Positions 29,770 to 57,170 of a stretch of DNA of 64,000 bases are shown piece after piece; the first letter of the stretch is position 1, and each line of letters opens with the position of its first letter. The position numbers and the translations under genes are program-made. Origin of the DNA: Candidatus Lustribacter sp. (GTDB lineage Bacteria > Vulcanimicrobiota > Vulcanimicrobiia > Vulcanimicrobiales > Vulcanimicrobiaceae); the NCBI GenBank assembly GCA_965277805.1, contig OZ255842.1, positions 3,552,001-3,616,000 of the forward strand. The letters run 5' to 3'. Under the pieces are notes generated by a model. The model was not told the origin of the DNA, did no database searches, and was given only the letters and a program-made list of their open reading frames with translations.

Positions 29770-31788
29770 CTATGCGAGGACCGCGGCCGGCTCGAGTTCG
29801 ACGCCGGGCGGGATTTCGCTGAAGGCGTAGACTTCGACGCGTGGGCCCACGCGGTCGAAGAACTCCGCAAGCAGCGGGCGCAGCGACGCGGTGACGACCA
29901 CGGCATGCGGCGCGAACGATGGATCGGCGAGAAACTGCTCGACGCCTTCGCGGACGCGACGGGCGGTGTGCGGGTCGGGGGCAAGGCCGGTTTCGCAGTT
30001 CCACATCCGCGCGAGCTCCGCGTCGAACTCCGGCGCTAGGATCAATGGGCGTATGCGGGTGACGGAATCGCGGCGGAATTGCTGCGGCACGATGATGCGG
30101 CGTACGGCTTCGGCCAGATCGCGTGGTTCACGTGCGTGCGGTGCGGCATCGAGCATCGCCTCGAAGACCGCGATCGGATCGCGCGGCCAGGCGCGCTCTC
30201 GAAGCAGCAACGCGACGGCGCGATGCGCGGTGACGATCGGCAACGCGTCCGAGCCGACGTCTTTTACGATCGACGGCACCTGCGCGCGCAAGTGCTCGAG
30301 CAGCGTCTGGAATTCTTGGCGGCCGAAAAGCTCCGCCGCGTTCGCACGGACGATTTCGGAGAGATGCGAGCCGATGATCGAGATCGCATCGAACGCCAGT
30401 GCTCCCGCCGCTTGCGCGAGGTCGCGCGCTTCAGGCAGAATCGATTTCGCCGTGAGCCCGTAGACGGGTTCGAGACACGGTTCGCCTTCGATGTGCGCGA
30501 GCACGGGTTCCGGTGCGACGGCGAGGAGGCGGTCGAGCCGGAGTCGTCCTTCGCCGGCGATGCGATCGCGCACGCGGATCGCGTAGGTGTCGGGTGCGCG
30601 CAAGCCGTCGTCGCGCAAACGCACACCCGGGATGACGATGCCCGTCTCCGCGGCAAGCGCGCGGCGCACGTCGCCGATGCGGTCGAGCAGCGCGTCGGCG
30701 TTCGGCGGCGCGAGCAATCCGTAGAGGTCGGTGCCGACGTCGATCGAGAGCGCGTCGACGCCGACCAGCGCAAACGCCGACTCAGGCCGGCGCACCGCGT
30801 CTTTGCGGCGCCGCTCGGCGGCCGCCCGGAGCGCGTCGTCGGCCCGCTTGCGGCGGGCGCCCGAGACCGATGCCCCGCCGAACGCGGCGAGTGCGAGCGC
30901 GCCGAACACCGGCGCCGGCAATGCCGGCACGAACGCCAGCACCGCCATCAGCACACCGGCCGTGCGCAGCGCGTCGGGGCGCGCGATCAGTTGCGCCGCG
31001 AGGTCGACCGCCAGCGCGCCTTCGCCCGCGACGCGCGTCACCATCAGCCCCATCGACGTGGAGATGAGGAACGCGGGCAGCGTGGTGACGAGCGCGTTGC
31101 CGATCGAAAGAATGGCGAACGTCTGCAGCGCGTCGAGCGGTCCCATGCCGTGGTAGAACACGCCGACCACCAGGCCACCGGCGAGGTTGAGCGCGACGAT
31201 CACCAGCGCCGCGATTGCATCGCCCTTGACGAACTTACCCGCGCCGTCCATCGCCGCGTAAAAGTCGGCCTCCCGCTGCACGCGCGCGCGTTTGCGGCGC
31301 GCGCCGTCGGCGTCGACCACGCCCGCGTGCACGTCGGCATCAATCGCCATTTGTTTTCCGGGCATCGCATCGAGCGTGAACCGCGCGGAGACTTCGGCGA
31401 CGCGCTGCGCGCCGCTCGCGATCACGATGAACTGGATCGTGATCAGAATAGCGAACACGATCAGACCGACGACGATGTTTCCGCGCACGACGAACGCGCC
31501 GAACGCCGGAATGATCGCGCCCACGCCGTCCGCCAGGTGGCCTTGCGTAAGGATGAGGCGCGTCGCGCTCACGTCGAGCGACAAGCGGAACAGCGTCGCA
31601 AGCAGCAACGCCGGCGGGAACGACGAGAATTCCAAGGGCTCTTCGACGCGCAAGCTCAGCAGCAGGATCAGCGCCGACCCGAAGATGTTCAGCGCCAGCA
31701 GCGCATCGAGCACGGCCGGCGGCAGCGGAACGATGAGGATTGCGACGATCGAGAGCACCGCCGCCGCGAACACGGCGTTCGGCTTCAT
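29770..31788 (-). CDS. flhA: Flagellar-type export gate protein FlhA
   Basis: FHIPEP motifs RVAEVSARFTLDAMPGKQMAIDAD and FYAAMDGAGKFVKGDAIA; full cytoplasmic domain. Confidence 0.92.
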   Translation of the reverse strand: MKPNAVFAAAVLSIVAILIVPLPPAVLDALLALNIFGSALILLLSLRVEEPLEFSSFPPALLLATLFRLSLDVSATRLILTQGHLADGVGAIIPAFGAFVVRGNIVVGLIVFAILITIQFIVIASGAQRVAEVSARFTLDAMPGKQMAIDADVHAGVVDADGARRKRARVQREADFYAAMDGAGKFVKGDAIAALVIVALNLAGGLVVGVFYHGMGPLDALQTFAILSIGNALVTTLPAFLISTSMGLMVTRVAGEGALAVDLAAQLIARPDALRTAGVLMAVLAFVPALPAPVFGALALAAFGGASVSGARRKRADDALRAAAERRRKDAVRRPESAFALVGVDALSIDVGTDLYGLLAPPNADALLDRIGDVRRALAAETGIVIPGVRLRDDGLRAPDTYAIRVRDRIAGEGRLRLDRLLAVAPEPVLAHIEGEPCLEPVYGLTAKSILPEARDLAQAAGALAFDAISIIGSHLSEIVRANAAELFGRQEFQTLLEHLRAQVPSIVKDVGSDALPIVTAHRAVALLLRERAWPRDPIAVFEAMLDAAPHAREPRDLAEAVRRIIVPQQFRRDSVTRIRPLILAPEFDAELARMWNCETGLAPDPHTARRVREGVEQFLADPSFAPHAVVVTASLRPLLAEFFDRVGPRVEVYAFSEIPPGVELEPAAVLA

Positions 31789-32807
31789 GCGGCGAGCACG
31801 CCGGCGCGGATGAGCGCCGAGATGGCCGTGGCGACCGCGACGAACGATTCGGCCGGAATCGGACGTCCCGCCTCGCCGCAGCGCCACAAGAGCCGCGCGA
31901 GTGCGATGTCCTCGACAACCGGAATGCGCGCGCGGTCGGCGATGGCGCGCACGTCGAGCGCAACCGCATCGGCCGCGCGCACGAGGATCTCGGGCACCGG
32001 GACCGCCGGCGGCGCATAGCGCAGCGCGATCGCGATGTGGGTCGGATTCACGACGACGAACGACGCCTCACGCGTGCGCGCGATCCCGCCGCGCACGAGC
32101 GTGCGGTGCAGTTGCTTGCGGCGCGACTTCGCTTGCGGGTCGCCGTCTTGCTCCTTCGCGTCGCGCTTGAACTCTTCGAACGTCATCTTCAATGACTGCA
32201 GCCAGCGCCGGCGCACGACCGCATAGTCGGCCAGCGCGAACAGCCCGCCGACCCCGGCCGCGACGAAGCAGGCCTGCAGCATGCCGTCCAGCGCCACGCC
32301 GGCCGCGGCCGGCACCGACGTCGTCGCCGTAACGGCGGCAACGGTCCGAACGCCCAGCGGTGCAACGATCGCAATGACCGCAACGAACGCAACGCCCGCG
32401 CGCGCTGCCGCCACGGCGGCCTCTGTGCCGAACATCCGTTTGATGCCCGGCAGCGGCGCGAGCTTCGCGAATGCGAACGTTACCGGCGCAACGCGCAGGC
32501 CGCCGGTTTGCGCGAAAGTGGTCAGCAAGCCGGCTGCGGCTGCGCACGCTGCCGGCACCAGCGCGAGCTCCGTCAACACGAGCAGCGGCAACGGATCGAT
32601 GGGTCCGGCGACGTTCGTGCTCGCGCGCACCGCGTTCGCCGCCGCCGCCGTAACGAGCGGTAAGCACGCCGTGAGCCCGAGCACCGCCGCGGCAAATCCG
32701 GCGATGCTCGCGAGTTCGTGCGAGCGCGCGGCATTGCCCTCGCGCTTCGCCCGTTCGCGCCGTGACGGCGTCGCGTCGAACCGTTTCTCCGCACCGTCAT
32801 CGCTCAC
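31785..32807 (-). CDS. flhB: Export switch protein FlhB
   Basis: EKRFDATPSRRERAKREGN..RSHEL, LKMT..E.K...KEQDGDP, NPTH autocleavage site; GTG start at 32807. Confidence 0.9.
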   Translation of the reverse strand: MSDDGAEKRFDATPSRRERAKREGNAARSHELASIAGFAAAVLGLTACLPLVTAAAANAVRASTNVAGPIDPLPLLVLTELALVPAACAAAAGLLTTFAQTGGLRVAPVTFAFAKLAPLPGIKRMFGTEAAVAAARAGVAFVAVIAIVAPLGVRTVAAVTATTSVPAAAGVALDGMLQACFVAAGVGGLFALADYAVVRRRWLQSLKMTFEEFKRDAKEQDGDPQAKSRRKQLHRTLVRGGIARTREASFVVVNPTHIAIALRYAPPAVPVPEILVRAADAVALDVRAIADRARIPVVEDIALARLLWRCGEAGRPIPAESFVAVATAISALIRAGVLAA

Positions 32808-33520
32808 GGGCGCAACTCGAACGGCAACACGAGCCACGGCTGCGCGGCCAGCGGCGCAAACAGTGGGATGCCGCTCAGCGCAACGACGATCGCGACCGCG
32901 AACACTACCGGAAACGCAAGCGAGAAGCTCGCCAGCCGCGGCACGACACGCGCCACCGCAGCCAGCGCGACCTGCACGGTCAACGCAACGGCCAGCGCCG
33001 GTGCCGCAATGAGCAGCGCGGCGCGAACGATCGTCGCGGGCAGTGCAATAGCGAACTGCGTCCACGCTGCCGGCGCGATGATCCCGCCGGGTGCAACGGC
33101 GTCGAAACTGCCCGCGAACGCGCGTACGACCGGCACGTAGCCGTCGAGGAGAAAAAAGCCGGCCAGAAAGACGGACGACCATAGACGGCCGAACGCCTGC
33201 GCCGAAGTGACGTTGGCGTTCGGCACCGCGCCGCGCACGCCGACGTAATCGTCGATCGTGCGCCCGGCGTAATATGCACCGTCGTAGAGCAGCGAGGCGC
33301 CGGTGCCGATGGCCGCACCGAGCAGCGTCTCGCCGGCAACCGCGAGCGTGAACCGGACGCCGTCGAAGGACGCAGCGCGCACGTGCGGCGCGATGACGAA
33401 AGCCAGCGCGAGCGCCAGTGCCGCGCGCACCGGCGGCGGCACGCTTGGGTGCGAGAAGCCCGGTGCCCGGAAGATCATGCCTGCGCTGCGCGCGAAGACG
33501 AGCAGCATCGTCTGCGTCAT
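32804..33520 (-). CDS. fliR: Export gate protein FliR
   Basis: LLVFARSAGMIFRAPGFS..VPPPVR, AGETLLG, AGRTID, IAAP; located between fliQ and flhB. Confidence 0.85.
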   Translation of the reverse strand: MTQTMLLVFARSAGMIFRAPGFSHPSVPPPVRAALALALAFVIAPHVRAASFDGVRFTLAVAGETLLGAAIGTGASLLYDGAYYAGRTIDDYVGVRGAVPNANVTSAQAFGRLWSSVFLAGFFLLDGYVPVVRAFAGSFDAVAPGGIIAPAAWTQFAIALPATIVRAALLIAAPALAVALTVQVALAAVARVVPRLASFSLAFPVVFAVAIVVALSGIPLFAPLAAQPWLVLPFELRP

Positions 33521-33783
33521 CCACGCACGAGCTGCGGGATGCGCGCCACCGCCTCGAGCAGCAATTGCTCGCAAAGCGTGAGGCCGAAACGGCCGAACAG
33601 CGCGCAGGCGAGGCCGACGACGATGACTTTCGGTAACAGCGTGAGCGTCTGTTCCTGGATCTGCGTCGCTGCCTGAAGGATTGCCACGAGCGCGCCGACG
33701 AGCGTCGCAATCGTCAGAATCGGGATCGTCAACAGCGCCGTTACCAGCAGCGCGTCACGTAAGAGGCTCTCAAACTCGGCCAC
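33517..33783 (-). CDS. fliQ: Export gate protein FliQ
   Basis: VGALVAILQAATQIQEQTLTLLPK. Confidence 0.92.
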   Translation of the reverse strand: MAEFESLLRDALLVTALLTIPILTIATLVGALVAILQAATQIQEQTLTLLPKVIVVGLACALFGRFGLTLCEQLLLEAVARIPQLVRG

Positions 33784-33832
33784 ACCGCATACTCGCCGTT
33801 ACGCGATGACCGCGCGATGACCGGGATGTTGC
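33784..33832 (-). promoter_or_regulatory. 11-bp-period direct repeats upstream of fliQ
   Basis: Minus strand GCAAC-N6-GTCAT-N6-GTCAT-N22-GTG. Confidence 0.55.
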
Positions 33833-33850
33833 GAAACCTCGACGATTTTC

Positions 33851-33878
33851 GCGGTCCCTCGACAAGCTTGGGATGACA
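33851..33878 (+). repeat. Dispersed REP-like repeat, copy 2
   Basis: GCGGTCCCTCGACAAGCTTGGGATGACA. Confidence 0.85.
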
Positions 33879-33926
33879 AACTGCGCGCAGGAGATCAGGC
33901 CTGTGCCACGTACGGCAAAAATTACC

Positions 33927-35345
33927 ATGCCGGCCAAGACGATGTTCGACAAGATCTGGGAGCGCCACGCCATCCTCGAAGAGGCAGACGAGACCCTCCT
34001 CTACGTCGACCGCTGTCTATTACATGAGGGCTCGAGTCACACGTTCGAAAACTTGCGCGAAACCTCGACGCCGGTAGCGCGTCACAAGCAAGTGTTTGCT
34101 TTCGCCGATCACTACGTGCCGAGCGATCCCGAGCAGCGCAAGCGGGGAACGACCGCAATTGCCGATCCGGAGATTCGTCACATGGTCGAGCTGCTCGAGA
34201 GCAACACGACCGAACACGGCATCACGCAGTTCGGCATCGCTGACGAGCGTCAGGGCATCCATCACGTTGCCGGTCCCGAGCTCGGCATCACGCTGCCCGG
34301 TCTCGTGATCACCGGCGGCGACTCACACACGTCCACGCACGGTGCGTTCGGAAATTTTTCGTTCGGCATCGGCGCTTCGGAAGTCACGCACGTGCTCGCA
34401 ACGCAAACGATTTGGCAGCGCCGGCCCGGCAACAAGCGGATCGTGGTCGACGGCACGCTCGGCTTCGGCGTCGCACCGAAAGACCTGATCCTCGCGATCA
34501 TCGCGCGCATCGGCATCGGCGGCGGTCTCGGCCACGTGCTCGAATACGCCGGCTCGACGTTCCGCAAGATGTCGATGGACGAGCGCATGACCATCTGCAA
34601 CATGTCGATCGAAGCGGGCGCGCGCGCCGGCATGATCGCCCCTGACGACGTCACGTACGCTTATATTGAAGGCCGCCCATATGCGCCGCAGGGCGCAGAC
34701 TTCGAGCGTGCGGTCGCATACTGGAAGACCCTGCCATCGGATGACGACGCCAAATTCGATCAAATCGTCACGCTCGATGCGGCCGCAATCGCGCCGCACG
34801 TCACCTGGGGGACGAATCCCGAACAGGGCCGGCCGATCTCCGAACGCGTCCCCGATCCGGCCGCCGAAGCCGATCCGGAACGCCGCGCCGAAATCGCCAA
34901 GTCGCTGCAGTACATGGACCTCAGGCCCGGCATGCCGCTAACCGAGATCGGCGTCGATCGCGTCTTCATCGGCTCGTGCACGAACAGCCGCATCGAAGAT
35001 CTGCGCTCCGCCGCCGCCGTTGCGCGTCGCGGTCACGCCGTGGTGCCGACGTGGGTTGTGCCCGGCTCGGTTGCGGTGAAACGGCAAGCCGAAGCGGAGG
35101 GCCTCGATCGCGTGTTCATTACGGCGGGCTTCGAATGGCGCGAACCGGGCTGCTCGCTGTGCACGGCGCTCAACGGCGACATGATTCAGCCGGGCGAACG
35201 CTGCGCGTCAACCTCAAACCGCAATTTCCCCGGCCGGCAAGGACCGCTCGGACGCACGCACCTGATGAGCCCGGCGATGGCCGCAGCCGCGGCGATCACG
35301 GGTCACCTCACCGACGTTCGCCAACTCTCCGCCGGCAACAACTAA
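33927..35345 (+). CDS. leuC: Isopropylmalate isomerase large subunit family protein (divergent LeuC paralog)
   Basis: KTMFDKIW..H, GDSHTSTHGAFG, CNMSIEAGARAG, FIGSCTNSRIEDL, PGCSLC, STSNRNF.GRQG. Confidence 0.85.
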   Translation: MPAKTMFDKIWERHAILEEADETLLYVDRCLLHEGSSHTFENLRETSTPVARHKQVFAFADHYVPSDPEQRKRGTTAIADPEIRHMVELLESNTTEHGITQFGIADERQGIHHVAGPELGITLPGLVITGGDSHTSTHGAFGNFSFGIGASEVTHVLATQTIWQRRPGNKRIVVDGTLGFGVAPKDLILAIIARIGIGGGLGHVLEYAGSTFRKMSMDERMTICNMSIEAGARAGMIAPDDVTYAYIEGRPYAPQGADFERAVAYWKTLPSDDDAKFDQIVTLDAAAIAPHVTWGTNPEQGRPISERVPDPAAEADPERRAEIAKSLQYMDLRPGMPLTEIGVDRVFIGSCTNSRIEDLRSAAAVARRGHAVVPTWVVPGSVAVKRQAEAEGLDRVFITAGFEWREPGCSLCTALNGDMIQPGERCASTSNRNFPGRQGPLGRTHLMSPAMAAAAAITGHLTDVRQLSAGNN

Positions 35346-35962
35346 TGGAACCATTCACCCGCGTCACGGCGATCGCCGTGCCGTTCGACGAAGCCAACGT
35401 CGATACGAACCAGCTCTGCCCGACTCGCTTCAACAAGGTTCCGCGCGGCGAACGCTTCTGGAGCGTGATGCTGCACGACCGGCGCTTCAATCCGGATGAG
35501 TCGGAGAAGCCCGAGTTCATCTTCAATCAAGAACCATACCGGAAGGCCGGCATCATCGTGGCCGGCCGCAACTTCGGCGTCGGGTCGTCGCGCGAGACGG
35601 CGGTCTTCGGGCTCGTCTACTTTGGCATCCGGTGCGTCATCGCGCCGAGCCTGGGCGACATCTTCACCAACAACGCATACAAGAACGGGTTGCTCCCGAT
35701 CGTCCTGCCGGCCGAAGCGGTGACCGATCTCATGCAGCAACTGCAAGCCGAACGCGGCGCGGAGATCACCGTCGATCTGCCGAGTCAAGCCGTGATCGCG
35801 CCCAATGGCACGACCTACACGTTCGACATCAAGCCGCTGCGCAAGCGCTGCTTGAGTCTCGGTCTGGATGAGATCGCGCTAACCAAAACGTTCGGCGACA
35901 AGATCGATTCGTTCGAGGCGAACTACAAACGCACGTATGACTGGCTCGACACCGGAGCCTGA
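35345..35962 (+). CDS. leuD: Isopropylmalate isomerase small subunit family protein (LeuD paralog)
   Basis: MEPFT, NVDTNQLCP, NFGVGSSRE, DIF.NN.YKNGLLPI, GLDEIALT. Confidence 0.85.
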   Translation: MEPFTRVTAIAVPFDEANVDTNQLCPTRFNKVPRGERFWSVMLHDRRFNPDESEKPEFIFNQEPYRKAGIIVAGRNFGVGSSRETAVFGLVYFGIRCVIAPSLGDIFTNNAYKNGLLPIVLPAEAVTDLMQQLQAERGAEITVDLPSQAVIAPNGTTYTFDIKPLRKRCLSLGLDEIALTKTFGDKIDSFEANYKRTYDWLDTGA

Positions 35963-36443
35963 TCGCCCCTCGACGCTCGAGCACCTCGGCTTCGTCTTGG
36001 TGCTCGGTGTATTCATGGGCTGGTATCTCTGGAACAGCGCTGCCGCATCGGCGACCTTTGAGAACTTGTTCTTGGTCGGCCCGGTCAGCGTGCTCGGGCT
36101 CGCGCTGGTCGCGATCGTCATCGGGTTGACCATCGCGCAGAAAAACGCGCCGGCCGCAGCCGCGGGAGCGATCCCGGATCGCTTGCCGGTTGGCCGCACG
36201 CGCGATGCGATCGCCGTCATTATCGCGTTTCTCGTTTTCGTCGCTGCAGCACCGGTCATCGGTTTCGATCTCTCGACCTTCTTCTTCATGGCCGCCGTGA
36301 TGTGGTACCTCGGCGAGCGGCGCATCGTGTGGATCGCGGGCATCTCGCTCGCGCTCGCGGTGCTGCTCACCATCGGCGCGCTCGCGACGCTGACCTATCC
36401 CCTGCCGACCGCGATTCTCGGCCGGCTCTGGGCGCTGCTGTGA
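35937..36443 (+). CDS. Tripartite tricarboxylate transporter small membrane subunit (TctB-like)
   Basis: Four to five TM segments, IGF..STFFF..MWYLGER, LP motif; lies upstream of TctA. Confidence 0.7.
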   Translation: MTGSTPEPDRPSTLEHLGFVLVLGVFMGWYLWNSAAASATFENLFLVGPVSVLGLALVAIVIGLTIAQKNAPAAAAGAIPDRLPVGRTRDAIAVIIAFLVFVAAAPVIGFDLSTFFFMAAVMWYLGERRIVWIAGISLALAVLLTIGALATLTYPLPTAILGRLWALL

Positions 36444-37963
36444 TCGATCTCCACGCGCTGCAATCGGCGTTCACGATTCTCTCATCGTCAAACTTGGCGT
36501 GGCTGCTCGTCGTTCCGGGCGTCATCCTCGGCATGCTCGGCGGTGCCTTGCCCGGCGTCTCCGGCGCGCTGATTTTGGCGCTCGTGCTGCCGGTGACGCT
36601 GCGTATGGATTTTCTGCCGGCGCTCGTGTTTCTCACCGCAATCCACACCGGCTCGCTGTTCGGCGTTGCAGTGCCCGCGATTCTCATGAACGTGCCGGGC
36701 TCGGCGGCCGCAGTCGCCACGTCTTTCGACGGCTATCCGATGTCGCGGCGCGGCGAACACAACGTCGCGCTCGGCCTCGCGCTTTCGGCCTCCGTGCTTG
36801 GCCATCTCGGCGCCTACATTCTGCTGTTCTTGTGGATCGAACCGATTTCGCACGCGGTGTTGAAGCTTGGTCCGCCGGAGATGCTGTTGATCATGCTGTG
36901 GGGCCTGACGCTCATCGCGGCCTTACGCGGCAAACACATGTCGCGCAGCCTGCTCGCCGGCGTGCTCGGCATTTTGATCGGCACGATCGGGCTCAGTCCG
37001 GGCGGCGCGATTCGCGGCACGTTCGGCATACCGGATCTGCTCGACGGCGTCCCCGTCATCTCGGCGCTGATCGGGCTTTTCGCAGCCGGCGAACTCTTCA
37101 ATCTGGCGGGCACGAAGTTTCTCGTCGATGCGGCCGAACATCGCCGCGTTCGCATCAACGAGATCATCCGCGGTATGCTCGCGGCGCTGCGGTACCCGGT
37201 CGTCATCCTGCGCGGGCTCGCGATCGGCTCGACCATCGGCGGCCTGCCCGGCGTCGGCGCATCTGTCTGCAATCTCATCTCCTACGTCGAGACGCGCCGC
37301 ACCGACAAACACCCGGAAACGTTCGGCACGGGCAATCCCAAAGGCGTCGTCGCCGCCGAAGCGGGCAACGCGAGCTCCGAAGGCGGCTCGATGGCGACGC
37401 TGCTCGCGCTCGGCATCCCGGGTGGCGCCTCGTCGGCCGTGATGCTGGCCGCCTTTGCGCTGCACAATATCACCGGCGGCCCGCAATTCATCACGAAGTC
37501 CAAAGATGTCGTCTACGCAATCATCATGACGAACTTCGCCAACGGCGTCGTGCTGCTGCTGCTCGGCATCGTGCTGACCGGTCTGATGGCAAACATCGTG
37601 CGCATTCCCGTACGCATCCTCATCCCGGCGATCTTGGCGCTCGCGACGTTCGGTGCGTACAGCTTCGACGGCAGCATGATCGGGCCGTTCACCATGGCGG
37701 TGTTTGCCGTGCTCGGCTGGTTCATGCGCCGTCACGATTATTCGATCCCCGCCTGCGCCGTCGGCTTGATCCTCGGCAAGAACATCGAACAGCAACTGCT
37801 CAACTCGATTCAGGTGAGCGGCGGCGGACTCAGCTACTTCTTAGGCCGGCCGATCGCGCTGACACTTTTCGTGCTTCTCGTCGGTTCGATGGTCTATCGC
37901 CCGGTCATGGACCGGGTACGCACGTTCGGCCGGCGCGCCGAGAAAGATCCCGCTGCATGTTGA
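36440..37963 (+). CDS. tctA: Tripartite tricarboxylate transporter permease TctA
   Basis: GALPGVSG, AILMNVPG..A.ATSFDGYPM, GVVAAEAGNAS, LALGIPG. Confidence 0.9.
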   Translation: MIDLHALQSAFTILSSSNLAWLLVVPGVILGMLGGALPGVSGALILALVLPVTLRMDFLPALVFLTAIHTGSLFGVAVPAILMNVPGSAAAVATSFDGYPMSRRGEHNVALGLALSASVLGHLGAYILLFLWIEPISHAVLKLGPPEMLLIMLWGLTLIAALRGKHMSRSLLAGVLGILIGTIGLSPGGAIRGTFGIPDLLDGVPVISALIGLFAAGELFNLAGTKFLVDAAEHRRVRINEIIRGMLAALRYPVVILRGLAIGSTIGGLPGVGASVCNLISYVETRRTDKHPETFGTGNPKGVVAAEAGNASSEGGSMATLLALGIPGGASSAVMLAAFALHNITGGPQFITKSKDVVYAIIMTNFANGVVLLLLGIVLTGLMANIVRIPVRILIPAILALATFGAYSFDGSMIGPFTMAVFAVLGWFMRRHDYSIPACAVGLILGKNIEQQLLNSIQVSGGGLSYFLGRPIALTLFVLLVGSMVYRPVMDRVRTFGRRAEKDPAAC

Positions 37964-38949: not shown

Positions 38950-38980
38950 GTGGCGGTCCCTCGACAAGCTCGGGATGACA
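38950..38980 (+). repeat. Dispersed REP-like repeat, copy 3
   Basis: GTGGCGGTCCCTCGACAAGCTCGGGATGACA directly after the tctC stop. Confidence 0.85.
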
Positions 38981-39157
38981 GTGGGCATGGTTGGCTACCG
39001 TACATAATACCGTGCAGTAGGTCGAACGACCCATTGCCGAGCGTATTCTCGACTTAGTAGCATTACAGAGCCGTAGTTAGGCCGTCTGAACGAGGGAGCG
39101 ATACGTGTTTGCTCCGGCTCGCAAATATGCCCCGATTGCCGTTTTGAGCTGGGGACC

Positions 39158-41172: not shown

Positions 41173-41173
41173 G

Positions 41174-47144: not shown

Positions 47145-47182
47145 GCGTCCACCGTAGACGGTGCGCATGGCCGCGATGTTAC
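47145..47182 (-). promoter_or_regulatory. Direct-repeat motif plus -10 box, probable leaderless promoter of fliP
   Basis: Minus strand GTAAC-N6-GCCAT-N10-TACGGT-N6-ATG. Confidence 0.55.
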
Positions 47183-50484: not shown

Positions 50485-50487
50485 CGG

Positions 50488-51168
50488 TCAATCCTTCCGG
50501 TGCAGAACGGTGATATAACCGCCCTCTTGTTTGATTTGGCCCGCGCGCACGAGCTGGTTCATCTCGAGGCTCACCGTTTCGCGCGTGCTGCCGATGATCG
50601 AGGCGATGTCTTGATGCGTCAGCCGCAGGTCGAGTAGCGTGCCGTCACCGGTGGTTCGGCCGTGCTCGGCCGCAAGACGCTCGAAGAGATTCACCAGCCG
50701 GTCGCTGATCTTCGCATAGGCGAGATCTTCGATCGTCGCCGACGCATCGCTCAAACGGTCGTTGAGCATCTGCGCGACGTTGAGCGCGAGTGCCGAGTTG
50801 CCGGCGAGCAGCGCGAACAGATCGTCCGCGTGCGCTTTGCAAATCAGCGTTTCTTCCATGCACGTCGCGACCGTCGTGCGTTCACCGCCGCCGAAGAGCG
50901 CGTCTTCACCGAACATGTCGCCCGGGCCGAGAATCGCAACCGTGACTTCCTTGCCGTCGGCGGTGTTGCGCGCGATGCGTACGCGACCGGTCTTGATGAG
51001 AAACACGACCTTCTTCGCATCGCCCTGATCGAAGAACGTGGAGCGCTTGGGCAGCAGCTCCATCGTGAAGATGCCCTCGCTGCCCGCGATCGCCTCGACC
51101 GGCACGTTCGCGAAAAGCCGGTTCTTCTTCAGATACCAGATCTTGTTTTCGGTGTCTTCGGCTTCCAT
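50488..51168 (-). CDS. Crp/Fnr family transcriptional regulator
   Basis: KIWYLKKNRLF, LGPGDMFGE, LTHQDIASIIGSTRETVS. Confidence 0.93.
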   Translation of the reverse strand: MEAEDTENKIWYLKKNRLFANVPVEAIAGSEGIFTMELLPKRSTFFDQGDAKKVVFLIKTGRVRIARNTADGKEVTVAILGPGDMFGEDALFGGGERTTVATCMEETLICKAHADDLFALLAGNSALALNVAQMLNDRLSDASATIEDLAYAKISDRLVNLFERLAAEHGRTTGDGTLLDLRLTHQDIASIIGSTRETVSLEMNQLVRAGQIKQEGGYITVLHRKD

Positions 51169-51474
51169 CTAGAGCACCGCCCCGACGACGTGCGGCCGCC
51201 TCAGCGCGCCGGCATGGCTGTCCGCGCGCACGTACGAGAGTTGGATCGCGGCAGTGCCGGAGCGCACGGGCAGCGTCACGTGAAACGGCGAGCACACGTG
51301 CGGCGTGCAGAACGAGGCGATCCAGCCACGCGGCACGTCCACGGCGCGCAACCGCACGACCGATCCCGCCGGGGCGCCGACGCGCACGGCAAACGAGGTC
51401 ACGCCCGGATCGGCCGAGGGGTGGCACGTTCCGGCCGCGAGGGCGCACGAGAGAATCGCCAGTGCCAGACTCAT
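51169..51474 (-). CDS. Small secreted Cys-containing hypothetical protein
   Basis: Signal-like N-terminus; VPRGWIASFCTPHVCSPF. Confidence 0.6.
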   Translation of the reverse strand: MSLALAILSCALAAGTCHPSADPGVTSFAVRVGAPAGSVVRLRAVDVPRGWIASFCTPHVCSPFHVTLPVRSGTAAIQLSYVRADSHAGALRRPHVVGAVL

Positions 51475-51480
51475 AGCGCG

Positions 51481-51518: not shown

Positions 51519-53099
51519 TTACATCCCCGGCCGTTCGAGATACAGCGCGTGGCCGGCGAAGTCGAAGGTGACCGTGAACTTGCGCAGGAGGGCGAGGCCC
51601 ACGTTGCCTGCGTCGATGCGGTCGGCGAAGGCGCCGCTCTTGGCTTGGATCACGTCGGCGTCTTGGTTCGAGACGGTCGTCGAGCCGAGCCGCAGCGAGC
51701 TTATCCGCGTGGCATAGCTCTTGTCGCTGCCGCCCACGCCGATGAAGCTGCCCGTCCCGGTGCCCACCGCCGGCGCCAGCGCCGGGTGCGCGTCGGCGAA
51801 GGGACCGTAGATCAAGAGCGGGCTGCTGTCGCCCGTGTCGATGATGAAGGGCGCGTCGATGTCGTTGATGCGCAACACCGCCTCGGGAATGTCGCGGTCG
51901 GTATCGATTGCGATGCGGTCGCCGGCCGGTGTAATCGAACCGGGCGGGCCGAAGCGCATCACGTGGTGCGCGAAGTCGAGCTGCACGATGCTCGCGGCGA
52001 AGAACGGATAGCCCAAAATGCCGTCGATGCGCATGTGGCCGGCCGACGAACCCAACTCGATCGTCGAGATGACCAAGTTGTCGAGATATGCGTTGCCGAT
52101 CGTCAAGCGCGGCAATCGCGCGACGTGCAGGCCGCCCGCGCGCACCGCGCCGCGCACTTCCATCGAGCCTTCTTGCCCGATACCGGCCGCTTGCGCGACC
52201 TGCGAATCGAGCAGCACGTCGGCGGATCCGCTGTCGATGAGAAATGCGTACGGTTTGCCGCCGATCTGCACGACGCACGCGATGCGCGTGCCGTCATCGA
52301 GCAGCGGTACCGTTTGCGCGCCCGCAGCGATCAACCGCCGCGGCACAAGTGGCGCAAACAGGGCGCCGTCGATCGCGCCGCCGACTTTCACCGACGTCGT
52401 TTGCACGATCGTATCGAAGTCGTGTTCGCCGTCGGTCGTGACGGCGTGAAACGCCATCGCCATGCCGCTGACGTCGTGCCAGTCCGACAGGTCCACGTAC
52501 GTCGGCCCGTCGCCGTCGAGATATTCCGTGCGCAGCGGCAAGCCGCTCTCGGTATCGATCCAGATCGTTTCGGGTTCGCCGCCCTCGGCGTTGACCTCGA
52601 TGTTCCACGTGCGCCGGTCGCCGACCATGCCGAAGGCCAGAAAGCGCGCGCGTTCGGGCGCGGTGAGAAATTTTCCCGAATCGATGAAGTTCGCGGTCAG
52701 CGCGCGCCGGCGCAGCACGCCGGTGAGTTCTTGCACGTTGCCGTCGCTCGACGCCCAGATGCGATCGCCGATGCGCAGCGTCGTTTCCATCCGTGGACCG
52801 AGGCTCTCATCGTCGCGTTCGCGGTCCCCGTCGCGCCAGCTGTGAAAGACGCCGCTGAGTCCTTCGCCCGTAATCGTGCCGGTGGTTTCCATCGTCGCAA
52901 CGTCGCGGCCGTGCGTGGCTTTCTGATACGCCGCGAGAATGCCGGTGATCGGCGGCGGATCGCCGATATCGCGTGCTTCGGCAACGGGCATGCACGCAAG
53001 CGCAATCAGCGCCGCGGCAAAGAGAACGCCCTTACGGTTGCGAGCGGTACTGGTCGAGCGAACCGAGGACGTTTTTGACGTAGTTTTGCGTCTCGGCAT
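51519..53099 (-). CDS. Secreted aspartyl protease with two retropepsin-like domains (start uncertain)
   Basis: FLIDSGS..DGILG and FIIDTGD..GNVG; hydrophobic signal [12 protein letters not shown]; 5' end overlaps the slt gene. Confidence 0.8.
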
Positions 53100-53610
53100 A
53101 CGGGGGCACATCACCGTATTTTTCAACGGCATTCGGACCGGCATTGTAGGCGGCGACCGCAAGGCGCGTGTCGCCTTTGAAACGATCGAGCAGGCCGCGC
53201 AGATAGCGCGTTCCGCCCGCAACGTTCTGGGCGGGATCGTAGGGGTTCTTCACACCGAGCGACGCGGCCGTCTCGGGCATGAGCTGCATCAGCCCCTGCG
53301 CGCCGACCGGCGACGTTGCGTTGGCGTTGAACGACGACTCGTTCGCGATGACGGATTTGATCAGCGCGGGATCGACTTGCCAGATGTCGGCGTTCTGCTG
53401 CACGAGCGAGTTGATCTGCTCGGGCGGAACGGGTGCGGGCGCGTCGGGATTCTCCGTGCTCGCCGGGGCGAGTTCGGGCATCAGCGCCTGTGCGAGGACC
53501 GCGTTGAAATCGCTGCCGGGCGGCGTCGTGACGACGGCGCCGGCCGGGGGTGCTCCGCTAATCTGGGCAATCCGGTTCTGGATCGCCGAGATGTCACTGA
53601 GGATATCCAT
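53032..53610 (-). CDS. Lytic transglycosylase (SLT domain)
   Basis: [41 protein letters not shown]. Confidence 0.95.
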
Positions 53611-54640
53611 CGTCCAAGCTATCGGCGATTGCGGTCATCTGCATGAGGGTTTCGGCCGGATCCGCTCCCCCCTCCGCTTGCTTGAGAAAGCCCGCGATGC
53701 GGGCCTCGGCGGCGATCGCGCGGGCCAGGACGGGATCGCCGGCACCCGGATCGAGGCCGAGTGAGCGGGCATCGCGAGCGCTATCGAGCGCAGCCAGAGC
53801 TGCCCGCAGGCGCGCCGCAGCGCGACGATGCTCGGGCGTTGCGACTTCGCCCAGGGTGCGGCTCGCGCTGGCCGGGAGATCGATCGCCGGAAACCAGCCC
53901 GCGGCCGCGAGACGCGCGCTGAGGACGATGTGGCCGTCCAGCGCGGCCCGCGCGGCCTCGGCGACCGGATCGTGCTCCAGCGGGCCCTCGGAGAGCACGG
54001 TGGCCACCAGCGTGATGCTGCCGGCCGCCGTCGCCCCGGCGCACTCGAGGAGCCGTGCCTGTGTAGCCGTGACCGATGGTGGAAAACCCGCGCGCCCGAC
54101 CGGCTCGCCCCGCGCGATGGCGAGGTCGCGCGCGGCCGCTGCGACCCGCGCTAGGCTGTCGACGACCAGCAGCACGTGCAGTCCGCGCGAACGCAACGCG
54201 TCGGCCTGGGCAAACGCCATTTCCGCCACGCCCAGCCGTTCCGCCGCGGGACGGTCGCTCGTGGCGCACAGGACGGTCGTGCGCGGCGGGATCCGGCGCA
54301 GCCAGCGCTCGGCCTCGCGGCCCCGCTCGCCGGCCAGCGCCACCACCGTGGCGTCGGCGCAGCTGCCGGCGACGATCGCTTCGAGCAGCGTCGACTTGCC
54401 GGCCCCGGGGCTGCCGAAGATCCCGATCCGCGCGCCGCGCCCGAACGCGAGCGGGCCGTCGAGGGCGCGGATCCCGGTGTGGAACGGCGTCGTCACGGCG
54501 ACGCGCCGGCGCAGTTCCGGAACGCGCGGTGCGGCCGCCCGGCGCCGTCCGATCGGAGCCGGACCGCCGTCCAGCACGCAGCCGCCGGCACCGACGGCGC
54601 GGCCGAGCAGCGCCGTTCCGAGCACGACGCGCGCACTCAT
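53594..54640 (-). CDS. fliI: FliI/SctN export ATPase, N-terminally shortened (348 aa)
   Basis: [53 protein letters not shown]. Confidence 0.9.
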
Positions 54641-54921
54641 GACACGCGCTCGAGCAACGCCGCGAGTACCGCGTCGATCTCGCGGCCCAATGCTGCACGC
54701 GCGGCCTTCCCGAGCGCGGGATCGCACGATGCATCGAACGCGTCGGCGAGCCGCGCGCGAAACACGCGCACGTCGCGCGCGAAATCCGCACCATCTGCAC
54801 GCGCCGGCGGTTGCGGTTCGGCCGGCGCATCATCTGCCGGCGGCTCCTCCGCGACGGTCGCTTCGGGTGCGGCGCGCAACAACTGCGCGAACGAGACGAA
54901 CGCATCGTCAGCCGCGGGCAC
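54637..54921 (-). CDS. Small protein at the fliH position (miniature FliH-like)
   Basis: ~94-aa ORF overlapping both fliF/G and fliI; acidic/Pro linker, then helices (ARDVRVFRARLADAFD..AARAALGRE); GTG start uncertain. Confidence 0.45.
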   Translation of the reverse strand: MPAADDAFVSFAQLLRAAPEATVAEEPPADDAPAEPQPPARADGADFARDVRVFRARLADAFDASCDPALGKAARAALGREIDAVLAALLERVS

Positions 54922-56377
54922 GCAACAACTCCTCAGGATGCGGCACGAGGTCGCTCGCGGCGCGCGCCAGTCGCCGCACGATTTGCGCGCGCTCCTCAGG
55001 CGGATAGAGTTCGAGCACGGCGGCGGCCGTCGCGGCCGGCAGCGCGGAGATGACGGCGGCGGCAACGTGCGGCGGTTCGCCGGCGAGCGCGCCGCGCACG
55101 CGCGCCGGTGGAAGTCCCGCTGATTCGCGCGATGACTTGCGCACGCCGGCCGCTTCCACCGCGCGCACCAGCAAGGCATAGACCGGGCGCGCGCTGCGCA
55201 ACGTCAACACGACGGCACCCGCGACGAGGGCGAGTTGCGGCAGCATGCCGGTGAACAATCCCGCAATGCCCCACGCATCAATCCCGCGTACCGCGGCCGG
55301 CGCCGTCGAGGCGAAGCGCACGGCCTCGACGCGCAACGTATCCCCGCGATGCGCGTCGATGCCGGCCGCGGCCGCCGCGAGCGCGCGAATCGCATCGAGA
55401 TCGATGCCGCGCGCGCCGTCGACGAAGATCGCGACCGATAGGCGCGCGGTCGCATCGGGCGCAGCGGAATGATGCACGTCGCGCGTTTCGCTGCCGCGCT
55501 CTTCGGTGGTCGTGGTTTTCTGGTACTTCTTCTGCGGGCTCGCGTAGCGTTCGTCGCCGTTCGTGCGGGTGAGATCGCCGGCCAGCGGGAGACGTTTGAC
55601 GTCGTGCTCGTCGCGCGCTTCGCCCAGCGGTTCGCGATGCACGCGGACGATCGTCGCGCCCGCGCCGAGCGCCGCATCGAGCGCCGACTGCAGCGAGGCT
55701 TGCAGCGACGTGTCGTCGGGTTCGCTCGTGCCGCCGTCGAGCGCACCGCGATCGTCGAGCACGGTCACGCGCGCGGCATCCAAACCCGGCACACCGCCGG
55801 CGACGAACGCGCGAATACCCGCCACCGCCGCCGGCGAAAGATGCGCGCCCGGCGCGAGCGTGATGCGGACGCTGGCCGATGCGTCGCGCGTCGTTTCGTC
55901 GGCATAGGCGCCGGAACTCGCCGGCGCCACGATCACGCGCGCATCGGCGACGCCGTCCAATCCTCGCAGGCCTTGCGCGAGATCGGCAGCCAGCGCATCG
56001 CGCGTCTGCGCTTCGAGAATGCTCTGCGGCGTGAGCGCGTTGACGTGCGCGAACGTTTCGTCCGACGTGGCGAGATGCCGGTGCGGAACGCCGGCCAGCG
56101 AAAGCCGCAACAGCAACTCCGCGCGTTTGCGCGGATCGACGCGCACGTTGTCGGCCAACGGCGCGTAAGGAACGCCCCAGCCGGCGAGGCGCGTCTGCAC
56201 TTCGGTCAACTGATCCGCGTAGAGCGGCGTGGCGAACAGCGGGATGCGCACGTCGCGCGTCGCGGTGACGCCCCAGCCGAGCGCGACGATCGCCGCGACG
56301 AAACCCGCGAACAGCGCGGCCTTGAGACGCAGCGGCAACGCGCCCAGACGCGCAAGCTCGCGCCGGAACACCTCCAT
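54908..56377 (-). CDS. fliF: MS-ring protein FliF fused to a FliG middle-domain segment
   Basis: TM1, ASASV..L.PG..LS..V.GI..FVAGGVPGLDAARVTVLD, RLSVAIFVDG, GID..RGD.L.V, TM2, then EPPHVAAAVISALP..AAAVL..YPPEERAQIVRRLA. Confidence 0.85.
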   Translation of the reverse strand: MEVFRRELARLGALPLRLKAALFAGFVAAIVALGWGVTATRDVRIPLFATPLYADQLTEVQTRLAGWGVPYAPLADNVRVDPRKRAELLLRLSLAGVPHRHLATSDETFAHVNALTPQSILEAQTRDALAADLAQGLRGLDGVADARVIVAPASSGAYADETTRDASASVRITLAPGAHLSPAAVAGIRAFVAGGVPGLDAARVTVLDDRGALDGGTSEPDDTSLQASLQSALDAALGAGATIVRVHREPLGEARDEHDVKRLPLAGDLTRTNGDERYASPQKKYQKTTTTEERGSETRDVHHSAAPDATARLSVAIFVDGARGIDLDAIRALAAAAAGIDAHRGDTLRVEAVRFASTAPAAVRGIDAWGIAGLFTGMLPQLALVAGAVVLTLRSARPVYALLVRAVEAAGVRKSSRESAGLPPARVRGALAGEPPHVAAAVISALPAATAAAVLELYPPEERAQIVRRLARAASDLVPHPEELLRARG

Positions 56378-56380
56378 CGG

Positions 56381-56656
56381 CTAGATCTGCAGGCCCAGCA
56401 GCGTTTGCAGTCCCTGCGTGACGCGTTGCGCGCTTGCGGCAGCGAGCTGCAGCGCGATGTCGGCCCGCGCGCGCTCGACGACCATCTCTTGCAGTCCGCC
56501 GCGATGCGCCGCAAACGCGCGCTCGGCATTATCGGCTCCGGCGAGCGCGCCGCTCGCGGCATCGACCAAATCGCCGAACGCGCTTCCAGCTTGCGGCAGC
56601 GGGGTGACCGACGGCGCGTCGGGCGCAACGTCGGGAACGAGCGGTGCGACCTGCAT
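56381..56656 (-). CDS. fliE: Hook-basal body protein FliE
   Basis: FGDLV..A, LQEMVVERARADIALQL..RVTQGLQTLLGLQI, matching the FliE C-terminus. Confidence 0.8.
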   Translation of the reverse strand: MQVAPLVPDVAPDAPSVTPLPQAGSAFGDLVDAASGALAGADNAERAFAAHRGGLQEMVVERARADIALQLAAASAQRVTQGLQTLLGLQI

Positions 56657-56988
56657 CAGCGTTCGATGTCCAACGTGCGTTCCGCCAGCCGTTTCCCGAT
56701 GTCGAAGATCGATGCGTCGGCTTCATACGCGCGCTGCGCATCGAGCGTCGCGATCAGCTCCGTCAACGCATCGCCCGTGCCGGGTTCCGACGACACCGTG
56801 AAGGCTTCGGTCGTGTCGTCCTCGGCGCCGTCACCCGGAGTTTCCACGAGATGCGCAACCAAACGCTGATACGGATGTCCGGGCGTCGCGGCTTGCGCAG
56901 CCGCTACGTTGCGCGCGTCGAGGTCGAGCATCGTCCGCTGCGCGCTCATCCCGCGCGCCGCAACGTCGAGCAACGCAAAATCCGTCAC
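56656..56988 (-). CDS. flgC: Rod protein FlgC (short, divergent)
   Basis: DVAARGMSAQR..LD..ARNVA, PYQR, ELIATLDAQRAYEA..TLDI. Confidence 0.8.
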   Translation of the reverse strand: MTDFALLDVAARGMSAQRTMLDLDARNVAAAQAATPGHPYQRLVAHLVETPGDGAEDDTTEAFTVSSEPGTGDALTELIATLDAQRAYEADASIFDIGKRLAERTLDIER

Positions 56989-57170
56989 TTCGCCACCAGC
57001 TTGAGCTCGTTCACGCGCGCCTTCACCGCGCCGAGCAGCGCTTCGGTAAACAGCGCCTGCCGCGCCACCGCGCCCATCGACCGCTCATTCGCAGCCCGGC
57101 TCGCCGCAGTAAGTGCATCCCGCGCCCCGGCAGCCGCCGCCGCAGTGGCGTCCCCAATATCAAGACTCAT
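56985..57170 (-). CDS. Miniature FlgB-like protein (61 aa)
   Basis: First gene of the operon, before flgC; C-terminal SMGAVARQALFTEALLGAVKARVNELKLVAK resembles the FlgB C-terminal helix. Confidence 0.5.
   Translation of the reverse strand: MSLDIGDATAAAAAGARDALTAASRAANERSMGAVARQALFTEALLGAVKARVNELKLVAK

Follow-up and report, generated by a model that had tools for sequence, protein, structure and literature searches.

The genome of a Candidatus Lustribacter species (Eremiobacterota) consists of one 5.53-Mb contig, and a 64,000-nt stretch of it (contig OZ255842.1, positions 3,552,001 to 3,616,000; hereafter the window) carries a minus-strand cluster of flagellar-type genes at window positions 29770-57170, recognized by codon-usage scoring and by Pfam and NCBIfam matches. 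In our reading, this cluster is the principal operon of a type III export machine that derives from the flagellum and is a second such system in this genome. The machine has descended vertically within a single class of Eremiobacterota, and it does not depend on the ordinary flagellum, which is present as well in some members of the class, among them this genome. Judging from its gene content, the reduced machine is probably an export device that does not rotate, a reading to which we assign a probability of about 0.6. Flagellum-derived, non-motile type III machines are a kind already known. What makes this one notable is its conservation on the scale of a phylum, its coexistence with a flagellum, a fusion of FliF to part of the FliG middle domain (FliG_M), and the existence of a cultured host.

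At about 65% G+C, the window contains long spurious open reading frames (ORFs) on both strands. Genes were chosen among them with a codon model trained on the long ORFs of the genome, and the winners were scanned against Pfam and NCBIfam. The resulting gene order, from a flgB-like gene through flhA on the minus strand, agrees in content and coordinates with that proposed in an initial annotation made from the letters alone. The genes are, in the direction of transcription:

56985-57170, minus strand: 61-aa ORF at the flgB position; no family match, assigned to FlgB from position alone
56656-56988, minus strand: short FlgC (TIGR01395, E 1.4e-11, below cut-off)
56381-56656, minus strand: FliE-like protein (TIGR00205, E 7.8e-4, 19.6 bits; weak and below cut-off)
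54908-56377, minus strand: FliF MS-ring protein with a stub of about 55 residues from the FliG middle domain, 489 aa (Pfam YscJ_FliF, YscJ_FliF_C, FliG_M)
54637-54921, minus strand: FliH remnant, N-terminal part only, 94 aa (no family match; aligned by eye with relatives)
53594-54640, minus strand: FliI ATPase without its N-terminal domain, 348 aa (Pfam ATP-synt_ab, T3SS_ATPase_C)
53032-53610, minus strand: lytic transglycosylase (Pfam SLT, 104 bits; NF047373, 85 bits, below cut-off)
51519-53111, minus strand: Sec-exported aspartic protease with a LolA-like N-terminal part and two retropepsin-like domains (Pfam Asp_protease_2, two stretches)
48951-49475, minus strand: candidate FliK/SctP-like ruler, 174 aa (predicted fold; gene present in 58 of 59 loci)
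48232-48954, minus strand: FlgE/F/G-family axial protein without a D2 domain, 240 aa, at the hook-gene position (Pfam LlgE_F_G_D1)
47438-48235, minus strand: FliM without its N-terminal segment, a CheC-like middle domain plus a SpoA domain, 265 aa (AlphaFold2 model, Foldseek)
47187-47444, minus strand: FliN, SpoA domain only (Pfam FliMN_C; TIGR02480, 105 bits, above cut-off)
46485-47168, minus strand: FliP (Pfam FliP, 244 bits; TIGR01103, 237 bits, above the cut-off of 217)
33517-33783, minus strand: FliQ (Pfam Bac_export_3)
32804-33574, minus strand: FliR (Pfam Bac_export_1; TIGR01400, 96 bits, below cut-off)
31785-32807, minus strand: FlhB-type switch protein with an NPTH motif (Pfam Bac_export_2, 234 bits)
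29770-31887, minus strand: FlhA-type export gate subunit (Pfam FHIPEP, 638 bits; start possibly at 31788)

Neighboring genes mostly overlap by 1-17 nt or sit 0-59 nt apart, in line with the tight coupling of open frames noted initially, and the signatures said to be kept in FlhA, FlhB, FliP, FliQ, FliR and FliN are all present as Pfam matches, with NPTH legible in FlhB. The NCBIfam equivalog cut-offs, for flagellar and injectisome models together, are cleared by FliP and FliN only, and the other parts fall below them. FlhA, FliP, FliQ and FliR score better on flagellar models (FlhA reaches 627 bits against a cut-off of 772, and 468 on the SctV model), whereas FlhB and FliI score slightly better on Sct models (for FlhB, 200 bits on SctU vs. 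185 on FlhB, both below cut-off). The arrangement is that of a fla/che-type operon as found in Bacillus, in which flgB-flgC-fliE-fliF-(fliG)-fliH-fliI is followed by fliK-flgE and then by fliM-fliN-fliP-fliQ-fliR-flhB-flhA. Among the ORFs scanned in the cluster region, there is no Pfam match to FliJ, FliO, FliL, FlgD, CheY, MotA/B, FlgH/I, FlgK/L or flagellin. The absence of these genes, as first reported, thus holds for the cluster region but not for the genome as a whole, where the classes that were searched for do occur.

A whole-genome search located a second FHIPEP gene at C1:956327 (C1 being the contig), which scores 876 bits vs. 638 for the window copy. Elsewhere in the genome are a full FliG C-terminal domain (C1:936421), four flagellin-N genes, two MotB-plug genes, a gene for the P-ring protein FlgI, and eight rod/hook-type N-terminal motifs, none of them within the window. 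When the window proteins were used as tblastn queries, paralogs of FliF, FliI, FliN, FliP, FliQ, FliR, FlhB and FlhA were found in the same order at C1:934100-958285, with 25-51% identity. For the initial annotation, full-length fliG, stator, hook and flagellin genes located elsewhere that complete the cluster would have refuted its reading. Read literally, such genes exist, full-length FliG among them, but they belong to a complete, separate set. Because that set has its own FlhA, FlhB, FliPQR, FliI, FliN and FliF, its canonical parts do not complete the reduced cluster.

The same separation is evident among relatives. We examined 41 genomes, comprising this one and 40 relatives from three families (f1, f2 and f3) and including the unpublished genomes G015 and G036. 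Flagellin, the MotB plug and FlgI were each found in 20 of these genomes and the FliG C-terminal domain (FliG_C) in 19, all four being confined to the same nine genera and occurring in none of the 11 f3 genomes. Flagellin, MotB plug and P ring were therefore not found in 21 of the 41 genomes, and FliG_C was not found in 22. FliG_C occurs only in flagellin-bearing genomes and MotB_plug in none of the flagellin-less ones; MotA was not searched separately. The FHIPEP scores divide in a similar manner, in that a copy of about 740-880 bits is present in flagellated genomes, usually with one of about 590-690 bits alongside, and the others have the lower type only (about 690-720 bits in f3).

The hook, filament and stator genes present elsewhere in this genome might be read to mean that the window encodes a second flagellum, one that shares these parts with the primary system. 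We consider this very improbable, because those parts are missing from 21 of the 41 genomes, of which only G019 does not keep the cluster, and because the cluster offers no FliG C-terminal domain to meet a stator.

Flagellin (above cut-off), FlgD and FlgH were found in none of five closed flagellin-less genomes (92-99% complete), and each of the five has exactly two Flg_bb_rod genes, which are adjacent, leaving no gene for a FlgK-type protein. More broadly, torque, stator, cap, junction, filament and L/P-ring genes were not found anywhere in genomes without an ordinary flagellum. The main cluster was checked in four of the five closed genomes (G051, G011, G013 and G022), and it is present in each of these in full and in the same order. 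The FliJ and FlgM families are represented in only one of the five. The genes concerned, in G051, lie at C1:1307529-1307870 and C1:1511191-1511328, far from the reduced cluster, and are possibly leftovers of a lost canonical flagellum. Vulcanimicrobium alpinum, the sole cultured member of the group, encodes the fusion protein (WPS_28630). According to the text of its description, its envelope is Gram-negative and includes an outer membrane, and both flagella and a flagellin gene are absent (PMC9758169).

Strong matches to the FliF-FliG_M fusion protein (E <= 3.5e-41, mostly full length at about 470-500 aa) were obtained in 39 of the 41 genomes. The exceptions are G019 (96% complete), without a match, and G018 (72% complete), which has a canonical FliF only. 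In a sample of 401 genomes from the phylum, twelve of them unpublished, 306 gave a match at a threshold of E <= 1e-20: 266 of 296 in f1, 5 of 5 in f2 and 29 of 30 in f3, or 300 of 331 over the three families of the class. The other 18 families contributed five weak matches among 70 genomes (E 1e-21 to 1e-26), which are probably ordinary FliF. A scan with one genome per species turned up 192 stretches with a gene for a relative; of the best 80, nearly all are labeled Eremiobacterota/Vulcanimicrobiota and a few bear other phylum labels. A search of 1.84 billion representative sequences returned full-length relatives of about 480-505 aa down to E of about 1e-41, and then ordinary FliF proteins of 510-580 aa. 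FliG_M was found in two of ten distant representatives scanned, in one of these below the Pfam cut-off, and the sole organism name among the distant representatives, attached to an ordinary FliF, is Eremiobacteraeota. Where homologs of the fusion protein are named, their source is Candidatus Eremiobacterota, with Ca. Lustribacter, Ca. Velthaea and V. alpinum among them.

The genes around the fusion have been preserved along with it. In 59 loci that span FliF to FliP, FliI, the FlgE-like gene, FliM and FliN are each present in all 59, and FliH was detected by tblastn in 47. Upstream of the fusion gene, FliE is found in 73 of 73 loci and FlgC in 72 of 73. Ratios of nonsynonymous to synonymous substitution (dN/dS; Nei-Gojobori method) relative to genome G004 range from 0.012 to 0.262 for 17 of 17 cluster genes, at dS values of 0.27-0.90; a flanking luciferase-like gene gives 0.119. 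Comparisons with G007 and G005 yielded 0.02-0.50, at higher and partly saturated dS. Purifying selection on all 17 genes, synteny of FliI, the FlgE-like gene, FliM and FliN in 59 of 59 loci and retention in flagellin-less genomes support the initial view of a selective, frame-preserving reduction as opposed to decay.

These data bear most directly on the alternative that the cluster is a flagellar remnant heading for loss, as in insect endosymbionts or Lysobacter. Several parts are indeed shortened, FliH and the FliI N-terminal domain have suffered deletions in this lineage, and foreign genes have entered the cluster. We nonetheless regard a remnant as highly unlikely, given that the cluster stands beside an intact canonical set in 20 of the 41 genomes and outlives that set in most of the others, that its frames are open with dN/dS of 0.01-0.26, that 300 of 331 genomes have it, and that its FlhA tree follows the families. 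Buchnera basal bodies are flagellar basal parts kept without a filament, and the Chlamydiaceae possess orphan flagellar genes. Both groups are host-restricted and have reduced genomes, unlike the soil bacteria considered here.

To place the export gate among known systems, FlhA was analyzed by a phylogeny of 31 sequences and 694 columns (LG+C20 model with posterior mean site frequencies, careful search). The sequences were 13 reduced-type and five canonical Eremiobacterota proteins, five flagellar and six SctV named references, a Sinorhizobium plasmid FlhA, and a third copy from genome G028. Reduced-type FlhA from all three families forms one clade (support 100/100, stem length 0.70). Within it the families are ordered f3, f2, f1, as vertical descent would lead one to expect. 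A branch with 100/100 support places this clade on the flagellar side, apart from SctV, so that the separateness from the injectisome lineage for which an FlhA phylogeny had been suggested as a check is upheld. The position indicates that the machine is not an injectisome relative, and is instead either an old duplicate of the flagellar genes of the phylum or an old acquisition. In an approximately unbiased test, a tree uniting the reduced and canonical Eremiobacterota FlhA proteins in one clade received p 0.144; for these sequences, an origin by duplication within the phylum is neither shown nor rejected.

Two other sequences in this tree deserve a brief description. The third FHIPEP gene of G028 (G028:C346:132105-134054, locus L052), an f2 metagenome-assembled genome of 360 contigs with 3% contamination, groups at 100/100 with SctV of Mycetohabitans, and either the injectisome is genuine or the contig is a contaminant. 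The gene annotated as FlhA on Sinorhizobium meliloti plasmid pRmeGR4b (locus L038) has a branch length of 2.0 next to the SctV clade and lies among hypothetical genes and transposases. It is an orphan, highly divergent FHIPEP gene.

The signature component of the reduced machine is the FliF protein, whose residues 426-472 match FliG_M. The match corresponds to the start of the FliG middle domain, and this tail is the most conserved segment of the fusion protein, with its motif kept in 75 of 78 orthologs. Pfam finds neither the C-terminal torque domain nor the N-terminal domain of FliG in the reduced cluster, only the FliG_M stub. FliM had been marked as divergent or shortened, and this is correct for its N-terminal segment, which is absent, but not for its middle domain, which is present. 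An AlphaFold2 model of FliM built from 53 orthologs has a predicted local distance difference test (pLDDT) score of 87.3. Foldseek ranks the full-length FliM of Salmonella, as seen in C-ring structures, first among PDB entries (E 1e-10), and the model superposes on crystal structures of the FliM middle domain with a template-modeling score of 0.65 and a root-mean-square deviation (rmsd) of 3.2 Å. In flagella, it is the N-terminal segment of FliM that binds phosphorylated CheY. FliN, the partner of FliM in the gene order, has a dN/dS of 0.012.

A predicted complex between the FliF tail and the FliM middle domain scored 0.56, with the best of three controls at 0.00, and passed a mark that 58 of 80 solved complexes reach, compared with 2 of 110 mismatched pairs. 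Three runs share at least 94% of the contacts, and partner pLDDT values are at least 84. This constitutes weak support for docking. A FliG-FliM complex has already been solved, so the pass may show likeness only.

With no FliG C-terminal domain and no stators, rotation is impossible by any known mechanism. One might still imagine a motility or rotary organ whose torque and filament parts are unrecognizable or borrowed, since a complete rod set, a hook-position protein and a ruler are kept, as they would be for a drive shaft (see below). V. alpinum also moves on surfaces, although its describers ascribe this motility to type IV pili and the cultured cells show no flagella (PMC9758169). Considering in addition that neither FliG_C nor the MotB plug was found in flagellin-less genomes, that FliM is without its N-terminal segment, and that no filament or junction family is present, we judge a rotary function improbable.

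Initially, the axial parts of the machine were described as stripped, along with those tied to torque and switching. For the axial parts this was an overstatement, as a second locus about 150 kb from the cluster tracks the system:

C1:3763817-3765129, outside the window: adjacent FlgF-like (195 aa) and FlgG-like (242 aa) genes with ordinary N-terminal, D1 and C-terminal signatures
C1:3760201-3765129 (positions 4202-9130 of locus L134): second locus as a whole, with flgF-flgG and, on the other strand, a rod-binding-like ORF and a sigma factor

The rod-binding-like ORF is small (64 aa, with a motif recognized by eye and no family match) and, like the sigma factor, is about 3 kb from the pair. 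The best family for the sigma factor is FliA/WhiG, at 108 bits and below cut-off. In closed genomes G051, G011 and G013 the flgF-flgG pair is followed by the sigma factor, and the small ORF between them was detected in G051 only. Across the 41 genomes, Flg_bb_rod genes number two in flagellin-less f1 members, two or three in f3, and mostly six to nine in flagellated genomes. G019, from which the reduced cluster is absent, has none. With FlgF and FlgG supplied by a second locus that tracks the reduced cluster, the machine possesses a complete set of rod components, along with a protein at the hook position.

Within the main cluster, the relatives that were inspected share a conserved ORF of 61-72 aa upstream of flgC, and the 61-aa ORF in the window has a dN/dS of 0.06. 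The FlgC ortholog in family f3 is 157 aa long and has both Flg_bb_rod and Flg_bbr_C. The FlgE-like protein, encoded where flgE stands in fla/che operons, is about 238-242 aa long in most of the 120 homologs listed. A profile of 59 orthologs matches FlgE in the PDB at 7e-12 (two stretches), FlgF at 3e-6 and FlgG at 2.5e-5.

Beside it is the gene for the 174-aa protein, which has no sequence match in Pfam, NCBIfam or the PDB. In the AlphaFold2 model, a conserved helix at the N-terminus is followed by about 60 disordered residues and then by an alpha-beta3-alpha C-terminal domain (pLDDT about 90). Among PDB folds, this domain comes closest to the FliK C-domain (2rrl, E 0.13), with the PscP switch domain second (5cuk, E 0.35; rmsd 2.7 Å over 75 columns). 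From this predicted fold we assign the protein, with moderate confidence, as a short FliK/SctP-type ruler. The FlgE-like and ruler genes of G003 at first resembled a hypervariable pair (64% and 61% identity vs. 97-99% for the flanks), and this candidate was rejected because the G003 assembly is full of frameshifts. In that assembly (L019/L056), which is from the closest relative, the frameshifts affect the FlgE-like, ruler-like, Crp, protease and NHL genes, and FlgI is split in three; in tblastn identities they mimic divergence, so that identities of single G003 genes call for caution.

Taken together, these components suggest how the machine might work. The FliF ring, through its own FliG stub, would dock the FliM/FliN ring, and this ring would act as the sorting platform. 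Export of FliE, FlgB, FlgC, FlgF, FlgG and the FlgE-like protein would be carried out by the gate together with FliI and, in most cases, FliH. The transglycosylase would open the peptidoglycan for the complete rod to cross, and a short, length-measured tube of the FlgE-like protein would follow the rod. At the final tube length, the ruler and FlhB would switch export specificity, and later substrates, perhaps produced under the FliA-like sigma factor, could then pass. The likeliest use would be the delivery of proteins out of the cytoplasm, to the periplasm or beyond, and not swimming. A non-rotating secretion device arising by independent exaptation was also the initial proposal. What we observe is a reduced, selected gene set on the flagellar side; secretion itself is inferred.

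Several observations weigh against a non-rotating export device of this design. No substrate beyond the axial parts of the machine itself was identified. Neither the cluster nor its surroundings encode a secretin, an L/P ring or another conduit through the outer membrane, and the three secretin-domain genes of the genome are at 1.35, 1.99 and 2.46 Mb, more than 1 Mb away. Flagellar hooks need the hook cap FlgD, and no FlgD was found. The ruler assignment relies on fold matches that are not significant (E 0.13-0.35) and has no sequence match behind it. FliH is reduced to a stump and the FliI N-terminal domain is lost in the lineage of this genome. In 36 of 75 loci the FliI alignment begins beyond residue 50, for which loss or divergence may be responsible. 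The FlhB motif reads NPEH, NPQH or NPNH in 4 of 13 orthologs and is gone in 2 of 13. Finally, the tree is of one protein with five flagellar and six SctV references and no chlamydial or myxobacterial sequences, and the branch that places the reduced clade outside all sampled flagellar FlhA proteins is weak (65/88).

The sigma factor and the absence of identified cargo raise another alternative. The machine could be kept mainly as a checkpoint or regulatory device, in which completion of the rod and tube leads to release or export of a regulator and so frees the FliA-like sigma factor, the output being gene regulation or an envelope-spanning structure instead of secretion in bulk. In three closed genomes without flagellin, the FlgF-FlgG pair and a FliA/WhiG-like sigma factor do form one operon. 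FlhB NPTH with a ruler-like protein implies a switch, and no cargo was found. Set against this, the FlgM family occurs in only one of the five closed flagellin-less genomes, far from the cluster, and no regulon was found: the motif upstream of flgB and fliQ (described below) is non-specific, with 38 genome-wide hits for its strict form vs. about 13 expected from shuffles. We consider a checkpoint an unlikely explanation.

An export device without rotation, which we favor, can be compared with several known systems. It resembles the ordinary flagellum in its protein families and their order, with the genome's own canonical operon at C1:934100-958285 arranged alike, and in having FlhA on the flagellar side. 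It differs in the lack of FliG N- and C-terminal domains, MotAB, FliJ, FliO, FlgD, FlgK/L, FliD, flagellin and L/P rings. Thus, of the features that define a motile flagellum, the flagellar-type gate is present and FliG_C, the stator, and the hook cap, junction and filament are not. Like an injectisome, the machine has an export core related to that of the flagellum, a ruler and switch, and no motility parts. Unlike one, it has FliF in place of SctJ/SctD, flagellar rod proteins and an FlhA outside the SctV clade, and its hosts are free-living soil bacteria. A gate of the Sct clade, the secretin SctC and the SctD/SctJ rings are lacking, while FlhB and FliI give a mixed signal. No needle (SctF), tip or translocon family appeared in the Pfam scans of the cluster ORFs, which included no search aimed at them.

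A further comparison is with the secretin-less type III secretion systems (T3SS) of Myxococcales, as described by Abby and Rocha (2012; PMC3459982). These loci, described as lacking FlgBCDEK, FliE and FliG, fall at the base of the injectisome tree and were proposed to descend from the first step of flagellum exaptation. Both systems are conserved, non-motile, secretin-less loci of free-living bacteria, with a function that is unknown for the myxobacterial loci as described. In a comparison by description, with no myxobacterial sequence in our tree, the Eremiobacterota set keeps FliE, FlgC, FlgF, FlgG, an FlgE-like protein, FliM and a FliG stub, and it groups with flagella, a distinct case in which less has been lost. 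A different comparison comes from Lysobacter enzymogenes: its residual flagellar T3SS is reported from a flagellin-less cell in which the genes are expressed and affect secretion of non-flagellar proteins, including a protease (PMC7688988). Those genes are leftovers of the only flagellar set of the species, whereas here a distinct paralogous set stands beside the canonical one in many genomes. In the present genome two full core gene sets share one 5.53-Mb contig and the reduced set forms its own clade, which is not the pattern of a remnant of the cell's own flagellum.

So far, phylogenetic trees and the unusual myxobacterial loci have been the main basis for inferring how a flagellum could become a secretion machine. 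In the present case, a motorless derivative occurs across a whole class of common soil bacteria and retains more flagellar parts than any injectisome, including the rod, FliM/FliN and a FliG stub. A more ambitious interpretation is that this is a living machine at the proposed first step toward the injectisome, having given up its motility parts and retained rod, ruler and switch but not yet acquired a secretin, which is to say an ancient, independent second exaptation of the flagellum and a true secretion system, with an FlgE-like tube and its own FliA-like sigma factor, that carries dedicated proteins across the diderm envelope. We offer this interpretation as tentative and regard it as open to considerable doubt.

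Because the machine occurs both beside and without a normal flagellum, it supplies a natural comparison of which parts become dispensable once rotation is lost. Candidates are FliJ, FliO and FlgD, the N- and C-terminal domains of FliG, the N-terminal segment of FliM and, for some lineages, the FliH-FliI docking module. A full-text literature search (Eremiobacterota, WPS-2, Vulcanimicrobium) found no paper on the system in Eremiobacterota, and the word "secretion" is absent from the text of the V. alpinum paper, whose supplementary gene table may list the genes (PMC9758169). With a non-flagellated diderm member described in pure culture (PMC9758169), tomography, knockouts and secretome work are possible.

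The ATPase module differs between lineages. The window FliI has a legible Walker motif and GERGRE, and its match begins at about position 68-76 of the FliI/SctN profile. Its dN/dS relative to G004 is 0.124, and that of the FliH stump is 0.215. In relatives FliI is 423 aa long, although one distant lineage (L096) also has a 348-aa form, and Walker A together with GERxRE is kept in 65 of 67 orthologs. The FliH position in relatives is occupied by a protein of 130-167 aa, with a Pfam FliH match in five of five tested, three of them above cut-off. A deletion of about 420 nt common to this genome (G000), G003 and G004 has removed the C-terminal half of FliH and the N-terminal domain of FliI. G007 has a larger FliH/FliI deletion, and G005, of the same genus, is intact. 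The shortened fliH noted initially and the shortened fliI are thus real in this genome, but they are specific to part of the genus and some other lineages and are not a trait of the system.

Two enzymes are encoded between FliI and the ruler-like protein. The best NCBIfam model for the transglycosylase, NF047373, describes flagellar-assembly lytic transglycosylases. Its gene is present in 56 of 59 loci, and the N-termini of its orthologs show a conserved helix and no Sec signal. Its exit from the cytoplasm would consequently require another route, for which the reduced machine itself is a possibility. The protease is a frequent accessory, present in 48 of 59 loci, and 44 of 50 orthologs contain two or more D[TS]G motifs. 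Its first start call, at 52991, was too short, as a signal-peptide-like stretch lies upstream both here and in orthologs. The FlhB motif variants and losses are confined to one clade, whose records are mostly labeled Ca. Cybelea (loci L103, L110, L113, L118, L122 and L128), and possibly represent a variant of the switch mechanism. The loci with a variant FlhB motif also lack the protease gene.

Other features in or near the cluster are not constant components of the machine:

49535-51474, minus strand: lineage-specific module of a 101-aa ORF, a Crp-family regulator, a redoxin and a cNMP-binding protein (Pfam)
57171-57260 and 33784-33860, and loci L053-L132 of relatives: shared upstream motif of two hexamers 11 nt apart
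33873-46469, plus strand: 12.5-kb strain-specific insert between fliP and fliQ, outside the machine (Pfam)

The Crp module, which had been included in the cluster order, lies between the protease and the ruler-like gene and, like the 12.5-kb insert, proved to be lineage-specific. The Crp and cNMP genes occur in 4 of 59 loci and the redoxin and 101-aa ORF in 3 of 59. All are absent from G005 of the same genus. The redoxin has a signal peptide and the 101-aa ORF is lipoprotein-like. The module, found in only part of the genus, is under purifying selection (dN/dS 0.12-0.24) and may confer cyclic-nucleotide or redox control on the operon.

The shared upstream motif, CGCAAC-N5-GNTCAT with a TAnnnT-like hexamer about 7 nt before the start, precedes flgB and fliQ here and in many relatives, where it takes the form GGCAAC-N5-GCTCAY. 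Looser forms precede flgF2. Motifs so placed would point to co-regulated genes with very short leaders. A similar downstream part accompanies two further hits, neither of which is followed by an ORF of at least 60 aa, and a scan for sigma-70 promoters and terminators around the fliQ start found none. At the upstream edge of the cluster, a gene for an NHL-repeat beta-propeller (57270-58400, plus strand) is located between rpsI and the flgB-position ORF in this genome and G003 only. In G004, from which the NHL gene is absent, rpsI is followed directly by the cluster.

The insert between fliP and fliQ encodes Aconitase and Aconitase_C subunits, TctB/A/C, a YaiO-like barrel, a GT2 protein, a bactofilin-like protein and a polysaccharide deacetylase. 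This junction is a recurrent insertion site, with a metF-like gene of about 295 aa on either strand in most relatives and about 8.7 kb in G051. The metF-like gene is not in the window, and the metF homolog of this genome is at C1:5224230. In 34 of 34 loci with both genes the fliP-fliQ gap is at least 818 nt, and in the f2 genome G025 fliQ begins about 18 nt after fliP. The gap implies that the cluster comprises two transcription units in most genomes, though not in all.

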